Shown here: positions 1 through 43,506 of the stretch, one piece after another
How positions within the stretch are numbered: the stretch's first letter is position 1
Layout: every line of letters begins with the position of its first letter
NCBI GenBank assembly: GCA_965223425.1
Contig: CBDCWS010000001.1
Location: forward strand, 40,572-104,571
Direction: 5' to 3'
Length of the DNA stretch: 64,000 bases
Origin: Nitrosopumilus sp.
GTDB taxonomy: Archaea > Thermoproteota > Nitrososphaeria > Nitrososphaerales > Nitrosopumilaceae
Translations under genes and position numbers: made by a program
Notes under the pieces: generated by a model
The model's input: only the letters and a program-made list of their open reading frames with translations
What the model was told of the DNA's origin: nothing
The model's database searches: none

Positions 1-784
1 ATCCGATAGTGGCGTCTTTCCACTTTCTGTTTCTGCTTATACCAGTTGTTAGAGAGAAACACTTTCTTACTAAGCCTGCGTTGCTCACGTTTGAGTTTTC
101 GCTCATTCGGACGGGCGAGAGTTGCTTCGCGAAGCCGAATCAACGGAAACCGCAGGATTGGCTTTGCAATCCTGCTCTCGCCCGTCCGCAACGTTTCAAA
201 GGTCTTGGGTTCGGATACTGCTTACCGTTATCAAGTGTGGCGAGTGAGTTGATACCTACGTCTATACCGACAACAGGGAGTCCACGTGTATCACGAGGAA
301 CATTTGGTGTTCCTGTGTCTACCGTTATAGATACAAACCACCTATGTGCCGTTCTTGATATGGTAATCTTTACAATCTCACCTTTAAACCGTAACTTCTG
401 AAACATACGCACCCGCCCAATCTTTGGGAGGCGGATACGTTTACCTTTTATTGTGACCGAGTTCGGGTCAGTGCTATAAGATTGACGGTCTCTGCGTTTC
501 TTTTTCTTTGGAAACCTGCTTTGTCCGCTTCGCCACCGTGATATAGCGTCCCCAAGGTGCTTTATGCCAAATAAGGCTGCGCGCTGATCCATGTCTTTTG
601 CCCATTCTATACCGCGTTTGGCAATGTTAAAACGCTTATTGAGTTCTTTCCAGTGACGAGGCTCGTTTTTAAAATCAGATAGTCCATAGTTATACGCAAA
701 CCGAGAATAACCGCATTGCTGCGAAAACCATGAACGCTGCTCGTCAGTTGTGTCTAATGCTATCTTATGTGATTTGATCGCCAT
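1..784 (-). pseudogene. tnpB: TnpB (IS200/IS605/IS607 OrfB) RNA-guided nuclease, interrupted by an 83-bp insertion; runs off the left edge
   Basis: N-terminal HTH (QQCGYSRFAYN), LPKIG and RuvC-I VGIDVG motifs. Removing 107-189 restores the frame RPLKR-Y-ERKLKREQRRLSKK...HYRI, which parallels the TnpB at 6222-7316. Confidence 0.9.
107..189. repeat. Cruciform MITE/REP-like insertion inside tnpB
   Basis: 14-bp perfect terminal inverted repeat CGGACGGGCGAGAG (108-121 / 175-188); internal hairpins GCTTCGCGAAGC and GCAGGATTG..CAATCCTGC. Confidence 0.85.
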
Positions 785-808
785 TTGGGTTGCTCACGTA
801 TCACGCCG

Positions 809-872
809 TTAACCCCTTTCCAGTGGGTAGGCAAGCACGCCACCGAGAGGTGACGCTGGAAATACTTGCCAA
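809..872 (-). ncRNA. Putative pseudoknotted RNA in the tnpB 5' leader (copy 1)
   Basis: 64-nt block homologous to 7337-7400, with compensatory changes in P1, P2 and P3. Confidence 0.7.
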
Positions 873-1014
873 GACGAAAAAAGTCAAATCTTTTTTGGAC
901 TCCTGCACGAGCGTTACAGGGCTGGACCCCGGTTTATGCCATAAGGCATAAATACCGTTGATTCACCTAAAGGATTGGGATTGTTAAGGAAGTCCCTTCA
1001 TAGGTATATCCAAT

Positions 1015-1050
1015 AAAAAAAGGGAGTGTGTAGGGACACACCCCCTTTTT
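1015..1050 (-). terminator. Intrinsic terminator downstream of the large LTD protein gene
   Basis: Minus strand GGGGGTGTGT-CCCT-ACACACTCCC followed by a T-run; T-run also on the other strand. Confidence 0.8.
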
Positions 1051-1124
1051 CTTTTTAACAAAAGGTTAGTTCAAACATTATTTCATCCCTGAAATAACCT
1101 ATTTAGTTCTGCAAGCCTCGATTC

Positions 1125-4100
1125 TTATTGGTTCTTCAAGTCACCCCATGTCGTGGTAACTTTACCGGCTGCAGAAACATGTCCTTTCAGACGAGTGGTT
1201 GCCAACGCTGTGCGTTTACCATCCAAAGAAACATCTTCGATCTGGTAGTAGTAAACGACGTTGGGTTTCGCGGTTGTGTCTTTCCACTCGTAGACGTGCT
1301 GTTCAGACGTTGTGCCGTGTCCAGCAACGATGCCTTTGAGGTTGACAACCTTGTATTCGCCTTTCTTCGTTTCACTCCGCAAGATATTGAATCCAGCGTT
1401 GTTCAACTCAGATTGCGTGATCCAACGGATAACAACATCACCAGTGGCTTGGTCGCGCAACGGACGGAAACTCGACAGTGAAACTGGGAGTGGACTTCCT
1501 TGACGATGTCCGGGCGACGCTATATCATCGGTATCACCGTAATAGGTTTGCGGCACGAGATTCGTCATTGAAGCGAGAATCCAACCCGCTGCGGTTGTGC
1601 CATCATCGGCATCGCTACTGGTATACCGCCTTAGGAGAGAACTCCGTCCATCGTCGGACATTGGCAATGCCCATGCCGGCGCATCGTCAGTCTTTGCATT
1701 GCTGTCAATGTTTCCAACCGAATCCGCTACAACATCGCGTGCATCACTTAGCGAGATGTAGAAACCTTCAATGCTCAGTATGCTATCGCGCTGGCTGTTC
1801 ATCTCAAGCTTCTGACGATGTTTGGCGTAGAGGTTATAGACACTGGTATCCGGAATATCCGAAGAACGTCTACCGCTACCGGAGACAATCAAAGCTGTCT
1901 GGTTCGGCGCGACAATCAGGTCGCCATCAATTTTCAGCGTCGTGCTTGTGCGGCCATCCAAGTCTGCGGAATTGACGTTTAGAATCTTCAATTCCCAACC
2001 GTTGATGTTAATCGCCTGTGTCCGCGAGGCGTTGTAAATCTCAATCCACTGTGGCAGATTCCGCCGTGTTTGATCAACCATAACTTCGCTGATACTGATC
2101 ATGCCTGTGAACTTCGCCTTACTGTCGGCATCAAAGTACTCAGCTTGGACAGCGTCGTTGGCATAGCCGGGTGTGCCAGAATTGAAAGTGGTTTTGTTCC
2201 GATCAACACCTAAACCCGTGACACCAGCATCACCTACCCAAGAATCACCGTGGAAAAGGGCTTTAGCTGTGTCAAGTCTCCAGGTCTTGTCATCGTTCAT
2301 ACCCAGATCATCCTTTGCACCAGCACCAACGGATCTCAGGGGCCAGGCATCGGTGTTATAATTCGGGTCGTCATCCACTAATCCGAAATACCCACCATTA
2401 CCGGCTGCGACATCAACAATCTTCTCATGCGACCCCGCTTTTACCTCTGTCCGAAGGATAAGGAAGAACTTACCCGTGTCGGGCAGCTCCAAGTCGGCAT
2501 CTACATAATACAGCGTGTCAACGCCCTGCTTGGACGAATTCGGATCCGCAACGTTCTGACCCACAGCGAGACTTGTATCGGCAGGATCGGTGTTTACGAT
2601 AACCAGATACCCACCCCCAGGGATCACGATGTCTTCATCTGCGTCAGCAAAAGTAACAATCGCCACATCCTTCTTAGCGTGAGCGTCAGTATCATCAGTG
2701 GCAACCAATTCCGCGCTAACCATGCTAAGCACATATTTCTTGATATCCACCGATCCGGTCTTCTGATTGTGGAGTTCAATCCACTCATGCTTGGCTGCAG
2801 AACGGTTGGCGATCTCGTTGAAGATAACACCATCACGAGCAACGGTATCTGCTGCGTCTGCAGAGATGATGTTTATGATCTGATCTTGACCCGGTGTGGC
2901 ATAGCGATTACCTGTCTGGTACCTGCCACGGTTGGCTTCGTCTTCCTTCCAGCTCCCATTACGAGTGCCATCGGGAATCGCATTCAACTGATCTGCGCGA
3001 TTCTTATCGGTCTTCACGCGATCCTTGTGGTTGATGTTACGATACATTGAGACGAACGCTATGGGTGAAGAAGCAGGAATACCATTACCCGCTAAGTTCC
3101 CAAGGCTACCGTTTTGACCGTAACTGCCTGATGTGACATTCCATTGACCTAAGCCCCAGTTGCTCATCCTATCAGTCGTATTCGCAGCTTTGTCTCCGGG
3201 GTTCCCACTGGTCATATTCAATGTCCACATCCCAGGTTTTGCATTGGCAACGACTACACTATCTTTACTTACCTGTGTCGAATCCGCTGCAACATAGAGC
3301 TCAATCCACTGACTCTGTGTCTGGACTATGCCTGGAAGCGGAGTCGCATCGGCAGCCCACATGATTTCACTGATAACGACATCCTTATCGAGAGATCCCG
3401 TCGGACCTACTAGGTCGATAGCACCACCGCCGAAGCGGAAGAACCCTTCTAAGTCTGTCCACAGCGCATCAGGAACTACAGTTGTCGATACGTTGGCAGC
3501 AGCAAGCTTAATATCATTCAGCGCCGTTGCGGGCTGAAGAATTATATAGTCACCTGCTTGTAATGCAGCGGCATCAAGCATAAATGTTATCGCACCAGCT
3601 GCACCAGCAGCGACTGGGTTCATCGTGCCACCTATCACCACAGGCACAGGCGTTTCACCGCTTGTCGTAGCGACAGTGATCGTAAACGTCAGCGTGGCTG
3701 CTGTCTCTGCTGCATCTGACGACGTGGCTGTATAGGTATACATCGTTGCTGCCATCGCCGCAGTTGGCGTGCCAGAGAGCATACGCGTCGCCGCAGTGAA
3801 AGTTAAACCCGCAGGGAGTGTCGGGGTGATTGTGTAAGTGGTCGTGTCAGTAGCGTCTGCGTCTGTCGCCGCAGGCAACGTCACAGATGCAATCGCTGTG
3901 CCGGCAGTCGCGGATACAGCTGTAATAGATGTACCTGCTGCGAACGCAGGATTGTTCTGAGTAACAACGGCAGGTGCCGTCCGTGCTGCCAAGGTAACAG
4001 TAGCCGTCGCCGTTCCTGTGTTGCCTGACATATCGGAACCAGTCACTGTGAGTGTAACTGCGGTTTCGGCAATATCGCCCGTCGTCGCAGTCGCAGCTAA

Positions 4101-5468
4101 CGGTGTAATCGTAACCATGTAGGTATCGGTAGTTGCTCCAGCAGCAACAGCTGAAATCATGTAATTACCGGCTGCGGGTGTTGGGCTTCCTGTAACCGTC
4201 GGCATCCCTGTAGCAGGATTGACTTCGGTAACTCTGAAGGCAAGCGTAACCGCAGCACTTTGTGCCGCCGTAGGCGGTGCTGTGATAGCCACAACCGGAT
4301 CTGTAGTGTCTGGTGTTGGTGGACCCATGCCAACCATCGTCGTTGGAGGTGCCGTATTAGTAATCTTCTTGGAATACGCTTCTGACGTGGTTAGAGTCAG
4401 CGGCGGGTCTGCCAAACGATCATACTGTACAATTGCCACATACGTTTGACTTGCATCCGTTGGCATACGCTCGGCTTTTGGTGTAACGTGACTCAGCTCA
4501 ACCGTTGCCATATTTTTGTCTGTCGCAACAAGATTTTCAAGATCAAAATCCTTTATAATAGGATCAGCCCCTGTGAATGTAACCTCCACCTTGAAAGTCC
4601 TTGCTTCAGGATCATGGCTATCGTCAACAATATTAATGGCTACAGCGGGATTAACCTTTATTACTGGCGGAATTGTTTCAGATGTGACATCTTTTGCCGC
4701 CACATAAGATTCCTCCAATGTTACTGTTAAGTCAGGTGCGCCGGCTGGGTGGGTTATGCTTCCTGTGAAGACCCAATCACCATCTGCATTTACGGCGGTA
4801 GGAGCAGCGTTAAGTGTAGGAGCAGCATCAATATAACTGGGTTCGACCTTAACCTTAGCATCCGTAAGCCCTGGATCCGCATCTGCATCTGTAAACGTGA
4901 AAGTCAGCTTATAATTCTGACCGTCAGTGGGGTCCGTGTCGGTATCATCCAGTTCTGCCGTAATGACAACCTTTTGATCAAGCAATTCAGGCGGAAGGGA
5001 GAACCGCATGCTATTCTCAACGTTCCCTTTACCACCAACCAAAGTGCTGGTAAACGCATCTTCTGGTACGGATACGTGAAAGCCAACAGCAGTAGCAGCA
5101 ACAGCTGGGGTAAGAGTACCCAACCCTGTTGTAAGATTAATAGTCTTGCTGTAACTTTTATTGTCGGTACTTCTATCATTTGTAACAAGATTCGCGTCTA
5201 TAGGATCAGCACCTAACCCCACATCGTCCTTATCATAGAATTGGTAAGTAACCTCTTTATCAGCCGCAGTACTAGGATCACCAACAGGCTCTGTCAAAGC
5301 GATTTTCAGTATAAAAGCACCTCGCTCTGACGGTGCAGTAGCCGTACCAGCATCCGTAATCGTCACCGTTGGCCCGCCCTCCGCTGCCATCACAGAAGTC
5401 GCAACGAAAGCGAACATTAGTAAAAAAACTAAACTCGTCAAGGAAAATGTCAATTTATTTGACAACAT
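1125..5468 (-). CDS. Large secreted/surface protein with Ig-like (He_PIG-like) and lamin-tail domains and a Poribacteria-type C-terminal module
   Basis: Signal peptide after MLSNK (AGGAGG RBS upstream, so start placed at 5468); LPAGLTFTAATRMLSGTPT Ig motif; three LTD-like segments (VVISEIMW..QWIELY, VIFNEI..EWIELHN, ISISEVM..QWIEIYN); ends PVSLSSF...GKVTTTWGDLK. Confidence 0.85.
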   Translation of the reverse strand: MLSNKLTFSLTSLVFLLMFAFVATSVMAAEGGPTVTITDAGTATAPSERGAFILKIALTEPVGDPSTAADKEVTYQFYDKDDVGLGADPIDANLVTNDRSTDNKSYSKTINLTTGLGTLTPAVAATAVGFHVSVPEDAFTSTLVGGKGNVENSMRFSLPPELLDQKVVITAELDDTDTDPTDGQNYKLTFTFTDADADPGLTDAKVKVEPSYIDAAPTLNAAPTAVNADGDWVFTGSITHPAGAPDLTVTLEESYVAAKDVTSETIPPVIKVNPAVAINIVDDSHDPEARTFKVEVTFTGADPIIKDFDLENLVATDKNMATVELSHVTPKAERMPTDASQTYVAIVQYDRLADPPLTLTTSEAYSKKITNTAPPTTMVGMGPPTPDTTDPVVAITAPPTAAQSAAVTLAFRVTEVNPATGMPTVTGSPTPAAGNYMISAVAAGATTDTYMVTITPLAATATTGDIAETAVTLTVTGSDMSGNTGTATATVTLAARTAPAVVTQNNPAFAAGTSITAVSATAGTAIASVTLPAATDADATDTTTYTITPTLPAGLTFTAATRMLSGTPTAAMAATMYTYTATSSDAAETAATLTFTITVATTSGETPVPVVIGGTMNPVAAGAAGAITFMLDAAALQAGDYIILQPATALNDIKLAAANVSTTVVPDALWTDLEGFFRFGGGAIDLVGPTGSLDKDVVISEIMWAADATPLPGIVQTQSQWIELYVAADSTQVSKDSVVVANAKPGMWTLNMTSGNPGDKAANTTDRMSNWGLGQWNVTSGSYGQNGSLGNLAGNGIPASSPIAFVSMYRNINHKDRVKTDKNRADQLNAIPDGTRNGSWKEDEANRGRYQTGNRYATPGQDQIINIISADAADTVARDGVIFNEIANRSAAKHEWIELHNQKTGSVDIKKYVLSMVSAELVATDDTDAHAKKDVAIVTFADADEDIVIPGGGYLVIVNTDPADTSLAVGQNVADPNSSKQGVDTLYYVDADLELPDTGKFFLILRTEVKAGSHEKIVDVAAGNGGYFGLVDDDPNYNTDAWPLRSVGAGAKDDLGMNDDKTWRLDTAKALFHGDSWVGDAGVTGLGVDRNKTTFNSGTPGYANDAVQAEYFDADSKAKFTGMISISEVMVDQTRRNLPQWIEIYNASRTQAININGWELKILNVNSADLDGRTSTTLKIDGDLIVAPNQTALIVSGSGRRSSDIPDTSVYNLYAKHRQKLEMNSQRDSILSIEGFYISLSDARDVVADSVGNIDSNAKTDDAPAWALPMSDDGRSSLLRRYTSSDADDGTTAAGWILASMTNLVPQTYYGDTDDIASPGHRQGSPLPVSLSSFRPLRDQATGDVVIRWITQSELNNAGFNILRSETKKGEYKVVNLKGIVAGHGTTSEQHVYEWKDTTAKPNVVYYYQIEDVSLDGKRTALATTRLKGHVSAAGKVTTTWGDLKNQ

Positions 5469-5647
5469 TACGTATTTTCCTCCTAATCTATAGGAAATAA
5501 AAAACATTTACAATACACAGCACCGGTTTTGTACAACCCATGCCGTATCAAAACACTTTGGGAAATGTGAACCTCGTTTAGATATGACTCGCATTCCCAC
5601 GTAAAAACAAAGAACGGATCAGGGATTCTTTGACCATTCTCTTTGAT

Positions 5648-5878
5648 CTAACCTTGCGCCAACACCTTATTGGCATTGTCGCGCATAGCGAGGTGTTTTT
5701 CAACGACCGCCTTTTTCTCAGCGGCGATGAGGTCTTTTTCGGTCTCTATCCACAAAGGATGTTTTTTCATGCGAACGACTGTCGGCTTAGATGCGCCGAT
5801 TGTAACGGCGATCTCGTCATTGCTTTTTCCATTGAAAGCCAAATAACAGGCTTTAATAATGTCGCGATGTGAATACAT
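5648..5878 (-). CDS. Small HTH-type protein
   Basis: GAGGAG RBS; KSNDEIAVTIGASKPTVVRMK helix-turn-helix pattern. Confidence 0.55.
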   Translation of the reverse strand: MYSHRDIIKACYLAFNGKSNDEIAVTIGASKPTVVRMKKHPLWIETEKDLIAAEKKAVVEKHLAMRDNANKVLAQG

Positions 5879-6073
5879 CCTTATATCTCCTCTATATAGC
5901 CATGAATCAACCGAATCAATCAACCTTACCCCCTGCTATGTATATAGAATACAATTTTTAACGTATTAAGTCAAGAAAAATTACAAAAAATTTCAATTTT
6001 TATGCAGAATTGTTGAAAAAAGTCTAATTTTCACCAAATTTTACCCTAAAAAAGCGTTAAAGCCGACCAGAGT

Positions 6074-6240
6074 CCGTTGTGTAGGACTTAAACAAACCTT
6101 ACATTTCTGTTTGATTGTTGCCATGCTTCCTGTTTCAACGTCCACTGCCTCCAAACGAGGTCTTATATGAACTCCACAGGCGTTTTACTTCTCCTCGCAA
6201 CTCGTGGCGAAGTGTTAAAGGTTAAGTGGGACACAGATTG
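6074..6240 (-). ncRNA. Putative TnpB omega/reRNA scaffold at the element right end
   Basis: Directly follows the tnpB stop: ...AAACGCCTGTGGAG...TAAGACC...GTTGAAACAGGAAGC...GTAAGGTTTGTTTAAGTCCTACACAACGG, a pattern typical of TnpB right ends. Confidence 0.6.
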
Positions 6241-7316
6241 ATAGCCGCGTTGTGATCTCGATCGCATTCAAAACCGCATTCAGAACAGTGATAGGTGCGA
6301 TCCGAGAGCGTGAGGTCATCTTTCTTGTGTCCACAACTGCTACACGTTTTGCTACTCGCAAAGAACATATCGGCTTGTGTTATCGGTATACCGCGACGCT
6401 CTGCCTTGTATTTCAACATCGTTAGAAAGCGAGAAAAAGCCGAGTCGGATAAAGCCTTTGCCAACCTACGATTTTTCAAAAGTCCGCTGATATTCAGTGT
6501 TTCTATACCGATAGCAGCGGCACTTTTGACGATAGCCGTTGACGCTTTATGGTGTGCGTCCTCACGTATACAGGCAATGCGATAGTGGACTGCACCGAGT
6601 CGTTTCTTTGCTTTCTGCCAATTCTGTGAGCCTTTGCACTTACGTGATAAATCCTTGTTAGCACGTCTCAATTTGCGTTGATACCGCTTCAGAGGGCGTG
6701 GATTATCGTATACAACGCCATCAGAACACGTAGCGAGGGTGTTGATACCTACGTCAACGCCTATCGGCTCTCTATCGTCAAACAGGAGCGTTTGGTGTGT
6801 GTAATTGCTTTCGTTACACCGAACCAGTATAGAAACGAACCAGCGATCGTTACGCTTGGATACCACAACCTTAGAGACATCACCTTTAAACCGCAGTTCC
6901 TCACGCATCCGCACCCAGCCGATCTTGGGCAGATTGATACGCTTTTTGTAAACTTCAACCGTTCCTACGCCATTGTCGGCTTGATAGGAGATTCTATCAG
7001 ATCGTTTCTTATAGACGGGGAATCGGTTCTGTTTACTTTTCCAACGTTTCACGGCATCACCAAAGTTGTGGATAGCATTCTTGGACGCGTTCTGTGAGAG
7101 ATCGTTACACCATGCAAACTTATCAGGTTTGACGGCGTTAAACTCACGCTTGATGCCGTAAAGACTCCGCCATTCGTCAGCATCTAAGCCTGTCTTGAAA
7201 GACGACAAAGCAAAGTTGAAAGCAACGCGGGTATAGCCACAATGCTGCGCCATCAACGTGGATTGCTTGTTATTCGGGTTAAGTTCGATTTTCTGAGTTC
7301 GTAAAGGCAGCGTCAT
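6222..7316 (-). CDS. tnpB: TnpB RNA-guided endonuclease, apparently intact
   Basis: HTH, RuvC-I GVDVG, RuvC-II IETL, Zn ribbon CSSCG..CSECG, RuvC-III DRDHNAAIN. Confidence 0.95.
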   Translation of the reverse strand: MTLPLRTQKIELNPNNKQSTLMAQHCGYTRVAFNFALSSFKTGLDADEWRSLYGIKREFNAVKPDKFAWCNDLSQNASKNAIHNFGDAVKRWKSKQNRFPVYKKRSDRISYQADNGVGTVEVYKKRINLPKIGWVRMREELRFKGDVSKVVVSKRNDRWFVSILVRCNESNYTHQTLLFDDREPIGVDVGINTLATCSDGVVYDNPRPLKRYQRKLRRANKDLSRKCKGSQNWQKAKKRLGAVHYRIACIREDAHHKASTAIVKSAAAIGIETLNISGLLKNRRLAKALSDSAFSRFLTMLKYKAERRGIPITQADMFFASSKTCSSCGHKKDDLTLSDRTYHCSECGFECDRDHNAAINLCPT

Positions 7317-7336
7317 TGGTTACCAGTTACCAGCGT

Positions 7337-7400
7337 TTAACCCCTATCCAGTGGGTAGGCAGACACGCCACCTTGCAGTGACGCTGGATATGTCTGCCAA
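7337..7400 (-). ncRNA. Putative pseudoknotted RNA in the tnpB 5' leader (copy 2)
   Basis: See 809-872; G-U wobbles and a GCAA tetraloop favour the minus strand. Confidence 0.7.
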
Positions 7401-7411
7401 CTGGTATATAT

Positions 7412-7440
7412 ATTCTAACATTTGTGTGTTATTTTGTCAA
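7412..7440 (-). promoter_or_regulatory. Sigma70-type promoter driving the leader RNA and tnpB
   Basis: TTGACA-17 bp-TAGAAT on the minus strand, ending about 12 nt before the motif. Confidence 0.7.
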
Positions 7441-7899
7441 GAAAAAAGCCGAAGCCAATAGGAGTCCCAAGTTCCCATCGGCTTCAACATTTTAGTTTGA
7501 ATTTGGAGGAGTGAATGTTGCCAAACACTCAACCAATATTAACAATACGTTATTTATCACTTTTTGTCAAATTAAATCATAATAGAATGTAGTATACTCC
7601 TTATATCCGTTGGACAGGAATGCAAACGCCTGCATTCCTTGCAGGTGTCCTGTCCATCCTTTTGCATGGATAGAACGGATACGGATATTTTCCGTGGATA
7701 CTACATTCGGTCTATGAGTTATGGGGTTATGATCCCCCAATCGTTTGTAATGAGAGGTAGTTGCCTCTATAGGATTGTGTAGGTGTTCCCTCCACAACTG
7801 GCATATTAGAACCTCAACGATGAACCTAAGTATCAGTATATCTTGTGGGATTTAGAGATATTCTGTAGTTGTGCTTTGGCTGGCACCGCGATGTTTTGC

Positions 7900-8018
7900 G
7901 ATCGTGTCGGTCTGAGAAATCAGACAATCGGTCTATAAGAATGAAAGAGATACCCCACTCGCTGAAATAGGACGGGCATCTAAAGGAATCCCACTCCTTT
8001 AGGTGTGGGAGCAGTCAA
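7900..8018 (+). mobile_element. Orphan IS200/IS605-type right end (omega-RNA-like tail)
   Basis: GAATCCCACTCCTTTAGGTGTGGGAGCAGTCAA: subterminal hairpin plus terminal TCAA; no plus-strand tnpB nearby. Confidence 0.6.
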
Positions 8019-8188
8019 CGCTGTATTTGACGGTATTTCGGTTATGCCTGCCCTGTCTGCGTTCATGCTATTCTATGCGCGCCTCAAGACATTCGATCTC
8101 TTTTAGTTTCGAGTAGTATTCAGCGAAGTTTTCACCACCGCGTGGTCGCTTATGCCAACGCCAAAGTTTGCGCTTAGACTGCTGATAC

Positions 8189-8728
8189 TTACGTGCCAGG
8201 CTCTCCGCTCCTTACAGGAGGCACTTCATTGCCCCAGTAATCCCAGTCATTGTCGAAGTCAAAGATAGTTGGACGGGCAAAGAGTTCGATTTTCGGTAGG
8301 TTCGGGTGTGTTTTATCTATTGCTGTTCTTACTTGTAAAGGTTTCACGCTGTGTGTTCCTCGCCTAACTGATAAAACATACCCGTGGGTTTCCTCTATAG
8401 TGGATTCAGTAAAATTGCCGCGTGTACCTACAAGTATGAGTTCATGCTGATTGCGCGCCCAATATCCCATACCTGCAACCTTCTTATCCCATAGTATGTT
8501 GGTTTTGTATTCAAAGCCCCAAGCGTTCATTACTTCAAATGCTTCGGGAAATTTCGGTGCGGTTGCCCAAAGGTAAAGCACAGCATCCGTATGGCAAAAT
8601 TCCCCAACGTCAATCGCCTTGATGTCCTCTATAGCCATTGTAGGATAATGGTTTTCAATCTTACGGCTGTCTGATCTGCTAAAATCATACCGCCACGGGG
8701 GGTCGGCATAAATTACTTGATATTTCAA
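8189..8728 (-). CDS. MT-A70 family adenine methyltransferase
   Basis: IYADPPW catalytic motif, LYLW, WGFEYKT, HSVKP, IELFAR. Confidence 0.9.
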   Translation of the reverse strand: MKYQVIYADPPWRYDFSRSDSRKIENHYPTMAIEDIKAIDVGEFCHTDAVLYLWATAPKFPEAFEVMNAWGFEYKTNILWDKKVAGMGYWARNQHELILVGTRGNFTESTIEETHGYVLSVRRGTHSVKPLQVRTAIDKTHPNLPKIELFARPTIFDFDNDWDYWGNEVPPVRSGEPGT

Positions 8729-42727: not shown

Positions 42728-43348
42728 CTATATCTCCATTCGGTTTGCGACGTATTTATAGAGGGTTCGAATCTCGTCGCTGGCTTTGCTGTTAGGGTCT
42801 AACTCTTGGACTGTTTTACCGTCGATAAACACGTGGGAGAATAGGATACGTTGACCGAGCGTACAAGGGGCACAGTCTGTATCATAAATCTCAACAGCAC
42901 GCCTCGCCTGCAAGAGCATAGAAGTCCTAGCGGGCACTGCGTTGAATATCACACTCGACGGTACAGACGCAAAGTTAGTGATTTGGACTGTTGATCCGAC
43001 GGATTGCAAGTCAAGGATGGCAGGCTTGCAAGGGATGAGTGCGAAGGATGCGGATCTAGCAGCATCAAGTGCAGCGGATTCAGTATGTGGAGCAGTGTCA
43101 AGGATCGCTAAAGTCGCACCACTCTGCTCCGCTGTATGTAATATGTCCGGTAAGCGCGAGGAGTGGGCAGAGATCACGACGGGTGAGTCGGCATCTCGGG
43201 TATCACCCCATTTAGCAGCACTCGCCTGTGGATCAAGATCAATAATAGTAGTAGTATGACCGGCTTGCTCCGCAGCAACAGCGAGGTGAACAGCAAGTGT
43301 GGTCTTCCCAGTTCCACCTTTTCGACTCAAGATGGCTAAAGTCTTCAT
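42728..43348 (-). CDS. parA: Short ParA/ParF-type partition ATPase
   Basis: Deviant Walker A KGGTGKTT, IDLDPQAS, ILDTAP; no N-terminal HTH. Confidence 0.9.
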   Translation of the reverse strand: MKTLAILSRKGGTGKTTLAVHLAVAAEQAGHTTTIIDLDPQASAAKWGDTRDADSPVVISAHSSRLPDILHTAEQSGATLAILDTAPHTESAALDAARSASFALIPCKPAILDLQSVGSTVQITNFASVPSSVIFNAVPARTSMLLQARRAVEIYDTDCAPCTLGQRILFSHVFIDGKTVQELDPNSKASDEIRTLYKYVANRMEI

Positions 43349-43365
43349 ATTTACCTCCAAGTCTA

Positions 43366-43506
43366 TACTCGTATGAAATCATACCCGTATAAGTTCATAC
43401 ATGTATAAGTTTATATGTGTATGAAATCATACCCGTATAAAACCATAAGAGTATATATCCATACGTGTATAATTTTATACACGTATGGATATATACGCAG
43501 TTATAG
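43366..43506. repeat. Centromere/operator-like repeat array upstream of parA
   Basis: GTATGAAATCATACCCGTATAA x2, many GTAT/ATAC words, and a 22-bp perfect inverted repeat at 43451-43496. Confidence 0.7.

Follow-up and report, generated by a model that had tools for sequence, protein, structure and literature searches.

A predicted pseudoknotted leader RNA with two alternative closing helices precedes tnpB in tnpA-less elements of Candidatus Poribacteria

In the transposase 5′ untranslated regions (UTRs) of IS200, with a 5′ stem-loop over the ribosome-binding site, and of IS10, with its fold-back inhibition, a cis-acting RNA lies between the promoter of a mobile element and the start codon; one helix can cover the ribosome-binding region, and the presumed purpose is a low output of a potentially harmful enzyme. 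Conserved structured RNAs are also known within tnpB elements: RAGATH-18 (RF03064; PMC11061315), IS605-orfB-I (RF03065) and HgcC are guide scaffolds at the 3′ end of the gene or overlapping it, and the group I intron of IStrons (10.1101/2023.11.20.567912), which measures several hundred nucleotides (nt), is spliced at the element ends and has a catalytic core that is conserved, lies in the left part of the element, upstream of tnpB. Here we describe a structured leader RNA of about 95 nt found between the promoter and the start codon of tnpB in a 64,000-nt stretch of DNA (contig CBDCWS010000001.1 of assembly GCA_965223425.1, positions 40,572 to 104,571, deposited under Nitrosopumilus sp.), which we call the window and number from its first letter. 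The reading that we favor, and to which we give about an even chance, is that this leader would act in cis as a 5′-terminal clamp, whose two near-isoenergetic closing helices would gate a start region lacking a Shine-Dalgarno (SD) sequence.

The leader lies, like the IS200 and IS10 UTRs, between the promoter of a mobile element and a start codon, and one of its predicted helices may likewise cover the ribosome-binding region and so keep enzyme output low, but it has no sequence or structural homology to them; the gene is tnpB and not a transposase gene, the fold is a kissing-loop three-way junction with two closing helices, type-A leaders have no SD sequence, and no antisense partner is evident. 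Like RAGATH-18, IS605-orfB-I and HgcC, it is a conserved structured RNA within a tnpB element, but it lies 5′ of the open reading frame (ORF) and gives no cmscan match; like the IStron intron, it occupies the left part of the element upstream of tnpB, but it is short (~95 nt), internal, promoter-proximal and without a match to Intron_gpI. A stem at the extreme 5′ end stabilizes bacterial mRNA, as in the ompA 5′ UTR, and a helix at or near the transcription start (+1) is the defining requirement for protection from 5′-end-dependent decay. The predicted leader helix would likewise start no more than a few nt from the predicted +1; unlike an ompA-type stem-loop, it has a pseudoknot and two alternative 3′ partners, and its stabilizing effect is suggested by analogy. 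With the purine riboswitch it has in common a closing helix with two loop-paired hairpins, the closing helix being in alternative pairing with the expression platform, and it departs from that riboswitch in its full loop–loop helix of 6–8 base pairs (bp), in its junction strands of 0–2 nt, which are unconserved across types, and in having neither an Rfam match nor a candidate ligand. The put RNA of phage HK022 is a promoter-proximal, two-hairpin nascent antiterminator RNA in a mobile element, and, unlike the leader, it is not known to have an enclosing helix, tandem partners in alternative pairing or a connection with a start codon.

A cmscan search had been proposed by an earlier note on this DNA, written from the sequence without databases, and no Rfam family, HEARO included, was found to cover the leader: with Rfam 15 there was no match on it at gathering thresholds over the whole window, nothing covering it at E ≤ 1 in window 1–8000, and, in 11 loci with leaders of other types, nothing on the leader at E ≤ 0.1. 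BLASTN found no match to the leader among PLSDB plasmids or INPHARED phages. No description of the leader was found in the literature on leaders, 5′ UTRs and pseudoknots of TnpB, IS605-orfB and IS607 or on Poribacteria, and the papers on TnpB diversity, on RAGATH-18 (PMC11061315) and on IStrons (10.1101/2023.11.20.567912) do not mention it. On these sequence comparisons, the leader is a previously undescribed structured RNA family and a member of none of the systems compared.

Two minus-strand blocks, 7400–7337 (copy 2) and 872–809 (copy 1), had drawn attention to the locus; both lie where the earlier note placed them, and they are two copies of a single structured element. Conservation extends beyond that of the genes, with ~87% identity in the block against ~55–60% in the tnpB coding part (locus alignment). 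The flanks had been called unrelated, which does not apply to the −35 region and the downstream tandem heptamers, since these are common to both copies. The length of 64 nt had to be revised, because this block is only the core of an element of ~95 nt (7406–7320). The fuller plan, read from the 140 nt upstream of homologous tnpB genes, includes an outer helix (P0), two tandem heptamers (R1 and R2) and a third copy in the window (7603–7688, plus strand), all missing from that first reading, which had counted two copies. From 5′ to 3′, the order is an A-tract, a near-consensus sigma-70 promoter, the 5′ strands of P0, of P1 and of the pseudoknot, an optional hairpin P3, the 3′ strand of P1, the hairpin P4 with the 3′ strand of the pseudoknot as its loop, a short linker, R1, R2 and the AUG. 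P0 encloses P1 and P4, and the P4 loop pairs with the P1 loop or internal loop; the predicted fold is a closed, triangular kissing-loop three-way junction. The features of copy 2 are as follows.

7435–7440, minus strand: −35 hexamer TTGACA, with a spacer of 17 to TAGAAT and 11 of 12 consensus matches
7412–7417, minus strand: −10 hexamer TAGAAT, an extended −10 with TG at 7420–7419
7400–7406, minus strand: 5′ strand of the outer helix P0, UACCAGU, first nt of the predicted transcript
7391–7398, minus strand: 5′ strand of P1, GGCAGACA, pairing with 7365–7358 (fold and covariation)
7384–7390, minus strand: 5′ strand of the pseudoknot, UAUCCAG, inside the P1/P3 internal loop, pairing with 7351–7345
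7366–7383, minus strand: P3 hairpin, CGUCACU-GCAA-GGUGGCG, optional and of variable length across the family
7358–7365, minus strand: 3′ strand of P1, UGUCUGCC (fold and covariation)
7340–7356, minus strand: P4 hairpin, ACCC/GGGU, 7356–7353 with 7343–7340 (fold and covariation)
7345–7351, minus strand: 3′ strand of the pseudoknot, CUGGAUA, located in the P4 loop
7328–7334, minus strand: R1, first heptamer complementary to the P0 5′ strand, forming helix P0a (covariation)
7321–7327, minus strand: R2, tandem second heptamer complementary to the same strand, forming helix P0b (covariation)
6222–7316, minus strand: intact tnpB of 364 amino acids, with HTH_OrfB_IS605, OrfB_IS605 and Cas12f1-like TNB domains (stop codon 6222–6224)
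6127–6180, minus strand: RAGATH-18-like element 3′ of tnpB (29.4 bits, below the gathering score of 44.9)

The promoter predicted by the earlier note, TTGACA-17-TAGAAT, is thus present at 7440–7412, and the predicted +1 is A7405, nt 7 counted from the −10 box. R2 stops 4 nt ahead of the AUG (7316–7314), and the leader is noncoding, with an in-frame TAA at 7322–7320.

In both copies, the fold of minimum free energy consists of the nested helices (z = −2.2 and −3.8); folding of the complementary strand is poorer than that of the tnpB sense strand. A covariance model built from ten leaders, a search that had also been proposed in the earlier note, retrieved both window copies (93.7 and 72.9 bits) and 22 further leaders from Poribacteria genome loci, 13 metagenome contigs (degenerate pattern) and one IMG/VR contig, and the resulting 24-leader alignment (A5) showed strong covariation. 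With the pseudoknot included, 97.6% of the cells pair and compensatory changes occur in 24 of the 33 pairs; covariation scores 0.569, versus 0.179 in shuffles, none of the 500 shuffles reached the observed value, and sliding the partners by 1–3 columns lowered the paired cells to 34–48%. The 7-bp pseudoknot pairs in 95–100% of the cells, with compensatory changes in six of its seven pairs and three or four Watson–Crick pair types at the central positions, and RNAalifold independently gives P0, P1, P3 and P4. The differences between the two copies that the earlier note had listed were verified, and all of them preserve pairing: in copy 1, P1 GGCAGACA/UGUCUGCC becomes GGCAAGUA/UGCUUGCC, the pseudoknot UAUCCAG/CUGGAUA becomes UUUCCAG/CUGGAAA, and the closing pair of P3 changes from U-G to C-G. 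G-U pairs are frequent in A5 (19 cells in P3) and other non-standard pairs are almost absent, which argues that the fold belongs to the tnpB sense strand; of the two grounds proposed for choosing this strand, the wobbles hold, and the GNRA loop is unconserved (GCAA, GCUU, UCUC). Within type A, the sequence type of the two blocks, P1, P4 and a UAAA linker are conserved in sequence besides pairing, and the core pattern CCAGCGTCAC-N5-GGTGGCGTG has exactly two matches in the window, compared with 0.01 expected. This comparative evidence indicates that the leader is a genuine pseudoknotted structure whose helices covary, and that its fold is specific to the sense strand of tnpB.

The P0 5′ strand has two mutually exclusive partners. 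Against R1 (helix P0a), 95% of the cells are paired and five of seven pairs are compensatory; against R2 (helix P0b), 90.6% of the cells are paired in A5, with the same compensatory pattern as for R1. Where R1 and R2 differ, both mostly still pair through G-U (loci L026, L032 and L039). In nearest-neighbor calculations on 25 leaders, P0b differs in energy from P0a by a median of 0.2 kcal/mol, with values from −2.5 to +4.0, and in copy 2 the two helices are predicted to lie 0.2 kcal/mol apart. Across leaders, R2 ends 2–10 nt from the AUG, where an SD sequence would sit, and in L037–39 an SD-like GAGGA overlaps the 3′ end of R2 and P0b. No SD sequence precedes the tnpB of copy 2 or of the type-A leaders, although most long ORFs in the window have one. 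The arrangement is that of a riboswitch-like expression platform: P0a and P0b exclude each other, both covary, they are near-isoenergetic, and R2 abuts the AUG. A third partner for the heptamers was also sought, but no additional copy of the P0 5′ strand was found at a conserved position in other parts of the element, such as its guide-RNA region.

The plan of the leader is kept where its sequence is not. The helices and their lengths recur in leaders without shared sequence (L018, L025 and L045, with a GGCGAGGA-type P1; L026, with a GUAGGGGA-type P1; L032, L035 and L047; L037–39; L027–34; and window 7603–7688), and TnpBs 50–57% identical to that of copy 2 carry very different leader sequences on an identical plan. 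Across types, P1 has 8–9 bp and is occasionally longer, the pseudoknot has 6–8 bp, P4 has 3–5 bp and the P0 5′ strand has 6–9 nt; no unpaired nucleotide is invariant across leader sequence types. The minimal leaders (L032, L035/47 and L037–39) have no P3; in them, two hairpins stand side by side, with 7-nt loops that are complementary throughout. The hairpin pair is enclosed by P0, R1 and R2 are present, and the junctions measure 0–1 nt (L032, L037–39). A descriptor-based architecture scanner, written for the leader plan and run on leaders, shuffles and the window, recovered the full plan in 24 of 27 Poribacteria leaders with scores of 30–37, the maximum among 1500 shuffled leaders being 30.

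A protein-pattern scan of one genome per species gave 49 loci, 47 of them from metagenome-assembled genomes (MAGs) of Candidatus Poribacteria, which are sponge symbionts, and every instance of the leader comes from Poribacteria MAGs or from metagenome and IMG/VR contigs with near-identical cassettes. One more leader, that of L144, came from a second scan with other TnpB clades; its P3 is enlarged and its gene starts with TTG. No leader was seen in two loci distantly related to the L055 clade, and 68 distinct regions upstream of distant IS607-type TnpBs (33–43% identity, IMG/VR) gave only three marginal, AT-rich scanner matches. The leader can thus be described as a candidate cis-acting structured leader of a mobile element, with an unusual, predicted bistable closing helix and a host range that is narrow so far.

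Incomplete copies were also noticed. Positions 1–85 of L001 (plus strand) hold a second, 5′-truncated leader of another subtype (P1 CGGACA/UGUCCG; pseudoknot CGUCAGG/CCUGACG), which faces the 3′ end of the L001 tnpB with no gene after it and is probably a remnant of a neighboring element. Among the copies in the Poribacteria genome CATQHZ02, L027, L030, L031 and L034 have unrelated, GC-rich sequence (~1380–1440) where the P0 5′ strand and the beginning of P1 would be, and they look like 5′-truncated or disrupted copies; L028 and L033 have the full leader.

In 21 of 26 leaders, the promoter departs from TTGACA-17-TATAAT by 0–2 mismatches. P0 begins 3–8 nt past the −10 box, which places its start at the predicted +1 in every type. 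In three sponge metatranscriptomes, contigs join the leader to the 5′ coding region of tnpB; two RNA-derived contigs end within 1–5 nt of 7405, and others run upstream. RNA depth is near zero upstream of ~7405–7410, where the source DNA run is flat. The RNA runs are enriched over the 3′ RAGATH-18-like region (650–1170, against 5–75 over the ORF; peak at 6108–6215), as expected for a stable guide RNA. These data support transcription of the leader, with A7405 as the predicted start site. Directly upstream of the −35 box of copy 2, 7441–7486 (minus strand) contains an imperfect hairpin (GAAGCCGAU...AUUGGCUUC) followed by GGCUUUUUUC, which by eye looks like a terminator insulating the promoter from read-through; the terminator scan does not list it because its loop is too long.

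With regard to the element, the closest TnpB relatives (75–87% identity) have upstream either an IS607-type tnpA or the promoter–leader cassette, the two being mutually exclusive. The tnpA of these relatives (including P0101) encodes a MerR-like helix-turn-helix and a serine recombinase with an ARVSS motif and runs into tnpB; the loci with tnpA, which are full IS607 relatives, have no leader anywhere, nor one before tnpA. In alignment A6, L018 has a left end and a promoter homologous to those of L012 and L016, in which the promoter is that of tnpA; the sequences diverge right after the −10 box, and the leader therefore occupies the former place of tnpA. In L012 and L016, the tnpA ATG is only 6 nt after the −10 hexamer TACAAT (~860–890 in A6), so tnpA is apparently translated from a leaderless or near-leaderless mRNA. 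The left end starts with GGG, ~110 nt upstream of P0, at different genomic sites (L002, L003 and L021), in agreement with GG/TGGG as the target of IS607 serine transposases (10.1101/2023.11.20.567912). For defining the element ends, L055/60/62 and comparable metagenome loci were rejected, since they represent the same genomic site in different samples, and copy 2 has, upstream of its promoter, no homology that would define a left end. Type-A cassettes are found, too, in front of TnpBs only 30–35% identical to that of copy 2 (L001, L051, L053, L055, L056 and L058), and the TnpB of copy 1 is closest to those of L045 and L025, which bear a different leader type. Leader and TnpB thus have discordant phylogenies, and exchange of the cassette, or of its core, among elements seems to occur. 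As judged from these alignments, the host elements are tnpA-less tnpB elements of Candidatus Poribacteria, some of them demonstrably of IS607 type.

RAGATH-18 (RF03064) is the reRNA scaffold of IS607-type TnpBs (PMC11061315), and the element at 6127–6180 is presumed to be such an omegaRNA/reRNA scaffold. It is separate from the leader, which, as the earlier note had maintained, is not a 3′ omegaRNA/reRNA: these lie at or overlap the 3′ end of tnpB, at the right end and with the guide after them, and the leader (7406–7320) is 5′ of the ORF. Homology of the copy-2 locus to other loci stops near 6125. Past a variable gap of ~25 nt, a block of 18–30 nt (6073–6098, minus strand) is again common to L004/5, L011, L015, L017, L024 and L044, and it could be a conserved target site or a segment of the right end beyond the guide. 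Sub-threshold matches to the HgcC family just 3′ of tnpB in L032 (2606–2736) and L026 (2619–2747), both on the plus strand, are probably guide-RNA scaffolds. The metagenome contig L056, which carries a leader–tnpB element, also has a group II intron domain match (58.4 bits; 3483–3559 and 3993–4131, minus strand).

Among the four functions offered by the earlier note, only that of a translational regulator agrees with the fuller anatomy, that is, with the outer helix, its two 3′ partners and the abutment of the second on the AUG. The leader probably protects the 5′ end of the RNA and sets the amount of TnpB made. Pairing of the 5′ terminus in P0 would shield the transcript from 5′-end-dependent decay; pairing with R1 (P0a) would leave the start region single-stranded and translation on, and pairing with R2 (P0b) would bury the start region against a very stable folded domain, turning translation off. 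In this way, the leader may hold TnpB translation to a limited or partitioned level, on an RNA that is strongly transcribed and must also yield the 3′ guide RNA.

Several points weigh against this proposal. The energies of P0a and P0b are nearest-neighbor values that ignore the pseudoknot and tertiary effects, and the switch is deduced from sequence and energies. No trigger for the switch was found in these data, and the apparent switch may therefore really be redundancy. In type A, R2 and its surroundings are unlike any ribosome-binding site. The RNA evidence comes from contigs that were assembled for related strains, out of libraries in which DNA may be present, and some of these contigs enter the promoter. 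The identity of R1 and R2 could partly reflect duplication or gene conversion and not selection for two helices; the fact that their differences are wobble-compatible argues against this.

An unlikely but serious alternative is that the leader is purely a 5′ stabilizer or insulator, which would protect the tnpB–omegaRNA transcript and standardize the context of the start codon, R2 being a redundant partner or a spacer. In all types, the P0 5′ strand begins only a few nt from the predicted +1, which fits the rule known from ompA; the lack of conserved unpaired nucleotides is compatible with it, and the strong promoter and high RNA depth over the 3′ guide region fit a transcript built for abundance. 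However, it leaves unexplained why R2 tracks the 5′ strand through compensatory or wobble changes in every sequence type and why it constantly abuts the AUG.

Somewhat less probable, in our estimation, is that an effector-free bistable RNA splits the tnpB–omegaRNA precursor into a translated pool (P0a) and an untranslated, guide-producing pool (P0b) and so fixes the protein-to-guide ratio, or else that a put-like nascent RNA makes RNA polymerase resistant to termination. If the former were true, the ratio would be fixed once tnpA and translational coupling had been lost; either would be a previously unknown layer of TnpB control.

We consider it improbable that the leader responds to an effector, as a riboswitch or protein-binding leader in which a metabolite, an ion, a host protein or TnpB shifts the balance between P0a and P0b. 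Near-isoenergetic, exclusive helices beside a start codon are the classic layout of a translational riboswitch, and the sequence conservation of P1, P4 and the UAAA linker in type A is in line with a bound effector. Nevertheless, unrelated sequence types keep the fold without any invariant unpaired nucleotide, which argues against a metabolite riboswitch, one of the functions suggested earlier; the minimal types (L032, L037–39), with their complementary 7-nt loops and 0–1-nt junctions, offer no obvious pocket; there is no Rfam riboswitch match; and the fact that one leader serves TnpBs 30–35% identical argues against specific binding of TnpB.

Taken by itself, a put-like modifier of RNA polymerase that would suppress pausing and termination, so that transcription reaches the 3′ guide RNA, seems quite improbable. 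This analogy draws on the location of the element directly downstream of the +1 of a strong promoter, on its two adjacent hairpins 0–1 nt apart, and on the 1.1-kb ORF without an SD sequence that separates it from a functional RNA at the far 3′ end; but P0, R1, R2 and the position of R2 at the AUG would have no explanation, and conservation independent of sequence is unusual for an RNA that binds RNA polymerase.

We attach very little probability to a DNA-level transposition signal, either a Y1-type hairpin of a single-stranded DNA end or serine-recombinase repeats of IS607, although the fold is also predicted for single-stranded DNA and the 7-mers form one inverted and two direct repeats. The structured left end proposed in the earlier note is contradicted by the location of the element ~110 nt inside the IS607-type left end, with the promoter, which in full-length relatives drives tnpA, between that end and the leader; this internal position argues against an end hairpin. 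In addition, IS607 moves as double-stranded DNA and has no palindromic ends (10.1101/2023.11.20.567912), and the closest TnpB relatives are paired with an IS607-type serine-recombinase TnpA, not with Y1 (L001 and L055 clades excluded). The covariance model finds no counterpart in the 3′ flanks of the 49 loci, P0 is phased to the predicted +1, the abundant G-T pairs would be weak in DNA, and the heptamers CUGGUAA, CGUGAUA and CGGAUAU differ within the window, which is incompatible with a shared protein site.

A self-cleaving ribozyme trimming the 5′ leader is just as improbable: its size of 60–95 nt is typical and, following the RAGATH concept, small pseudoknotted RNAs near TnpB-type genes include known ribozyme neighborhoods, but there is no Rfam ribozyme match at E ≤ 1, the lack of invariant unpaired nucleotides across types argues against a catalytic core, the topology is unlike that of HDV-like, twister, pistol, hatchet and hammerhead ribozymes, and RNA contigs cross the element without a consistent break.

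The other leader copies in the window are the following.

792–870, minus strand: copy-1 leader, core 812–870 (covariance model, 72.9 bits)
799–805, minus strand: copy-1 R1, CGUGAUA, retained
792–798, minus strand: copy-1 R2, CGUGAGC, retained
882–887, minus strand: copy-1 −35 box TTGACT, the −10 box being deleted
3–784, minus strand: copy-1 tnpB remnant, frameshifted after ~203 codons and cut by the window edge
7603–7688, plus strand: orphan third leader of a different sequence type, no tnpB behind it (architecture scanner); P0 AUAUCCGU, P1 GGACAGGA/UCCUGUCC, pseudoknot AUGCAAA/UUUGCAU, P3 CGCCUGCA/UGCAGGUG, P4 AUCC/GGAU, R1 ACGGAUA, R2 CGGAUAU

In copy 1, a deletion between TTGACTTTTTTCGTC and TTGGCAAG removed the −10 box and the P0 5′ strand. 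The third leader is complete, with every helix and both heptamers; it stands head-to-head with copy 2, ~160 nt from the copy-2 promoter, and is followed only by a 22-codon ORF. A hairpin at 7983–8019 resembles sequence ~100–135 nt downstream of tnpB in L040 and L042, so the orphan locus may be a tnpB-deleted miniature element. It adjoins a gene for an MT-A70 family methyltransferase (8189–8728, minus strand), and between the two tnpB loci lies a gene for a secreted-looking protein of 1460 amino acids with Lamin Tail and He_PIG Ig-like domains (1125–5507, minus strand). In X1, the DNA run containing the window, k-mer depth over the leader core (7350–7403) is ~8 times that of unique flanks (8585 versus ~1000), which implies many paralogous leader copies in that sample. 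A scanner match at 43396–43499 was rejected as an AT-rich palindrome and repeat region that is not a leader motif; the surrounding AT-rich sequence (43370–43500, minus strand), in which a palindrome of 12 bp (AUCCAUACGUGU...ACACGUAUGGAU) is perfect and CUUAUACGGGUAUGAUUUCAUAC occurs twice, lies upstream of ORF 42728–43360 and has the look of an operator or a set of iterons.

Cas12 descends from TnpB, which is itself a compact nuclease for genome editing, and work on TnpB has so far centered on the 3′ guide RNA; for the control of tnpB expression after loss of the transposase gene, no mechanism is known to have been described before. Our results suggest that tnpA-less elements of one bacterial lineage acquired a cassette of promoter and structured RNA, which appears to have been exchanged among unrelated tnpB clades. 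Its predicted regulatory architecture, made up of a clamp, a kissing-loop junction and interchangeable closing strands, is compact and independent of sequence and could be reused. The leader thus adds a new, well-supported structured RNA family from an uncultivated phylum, with covariation enough to guide structure work.

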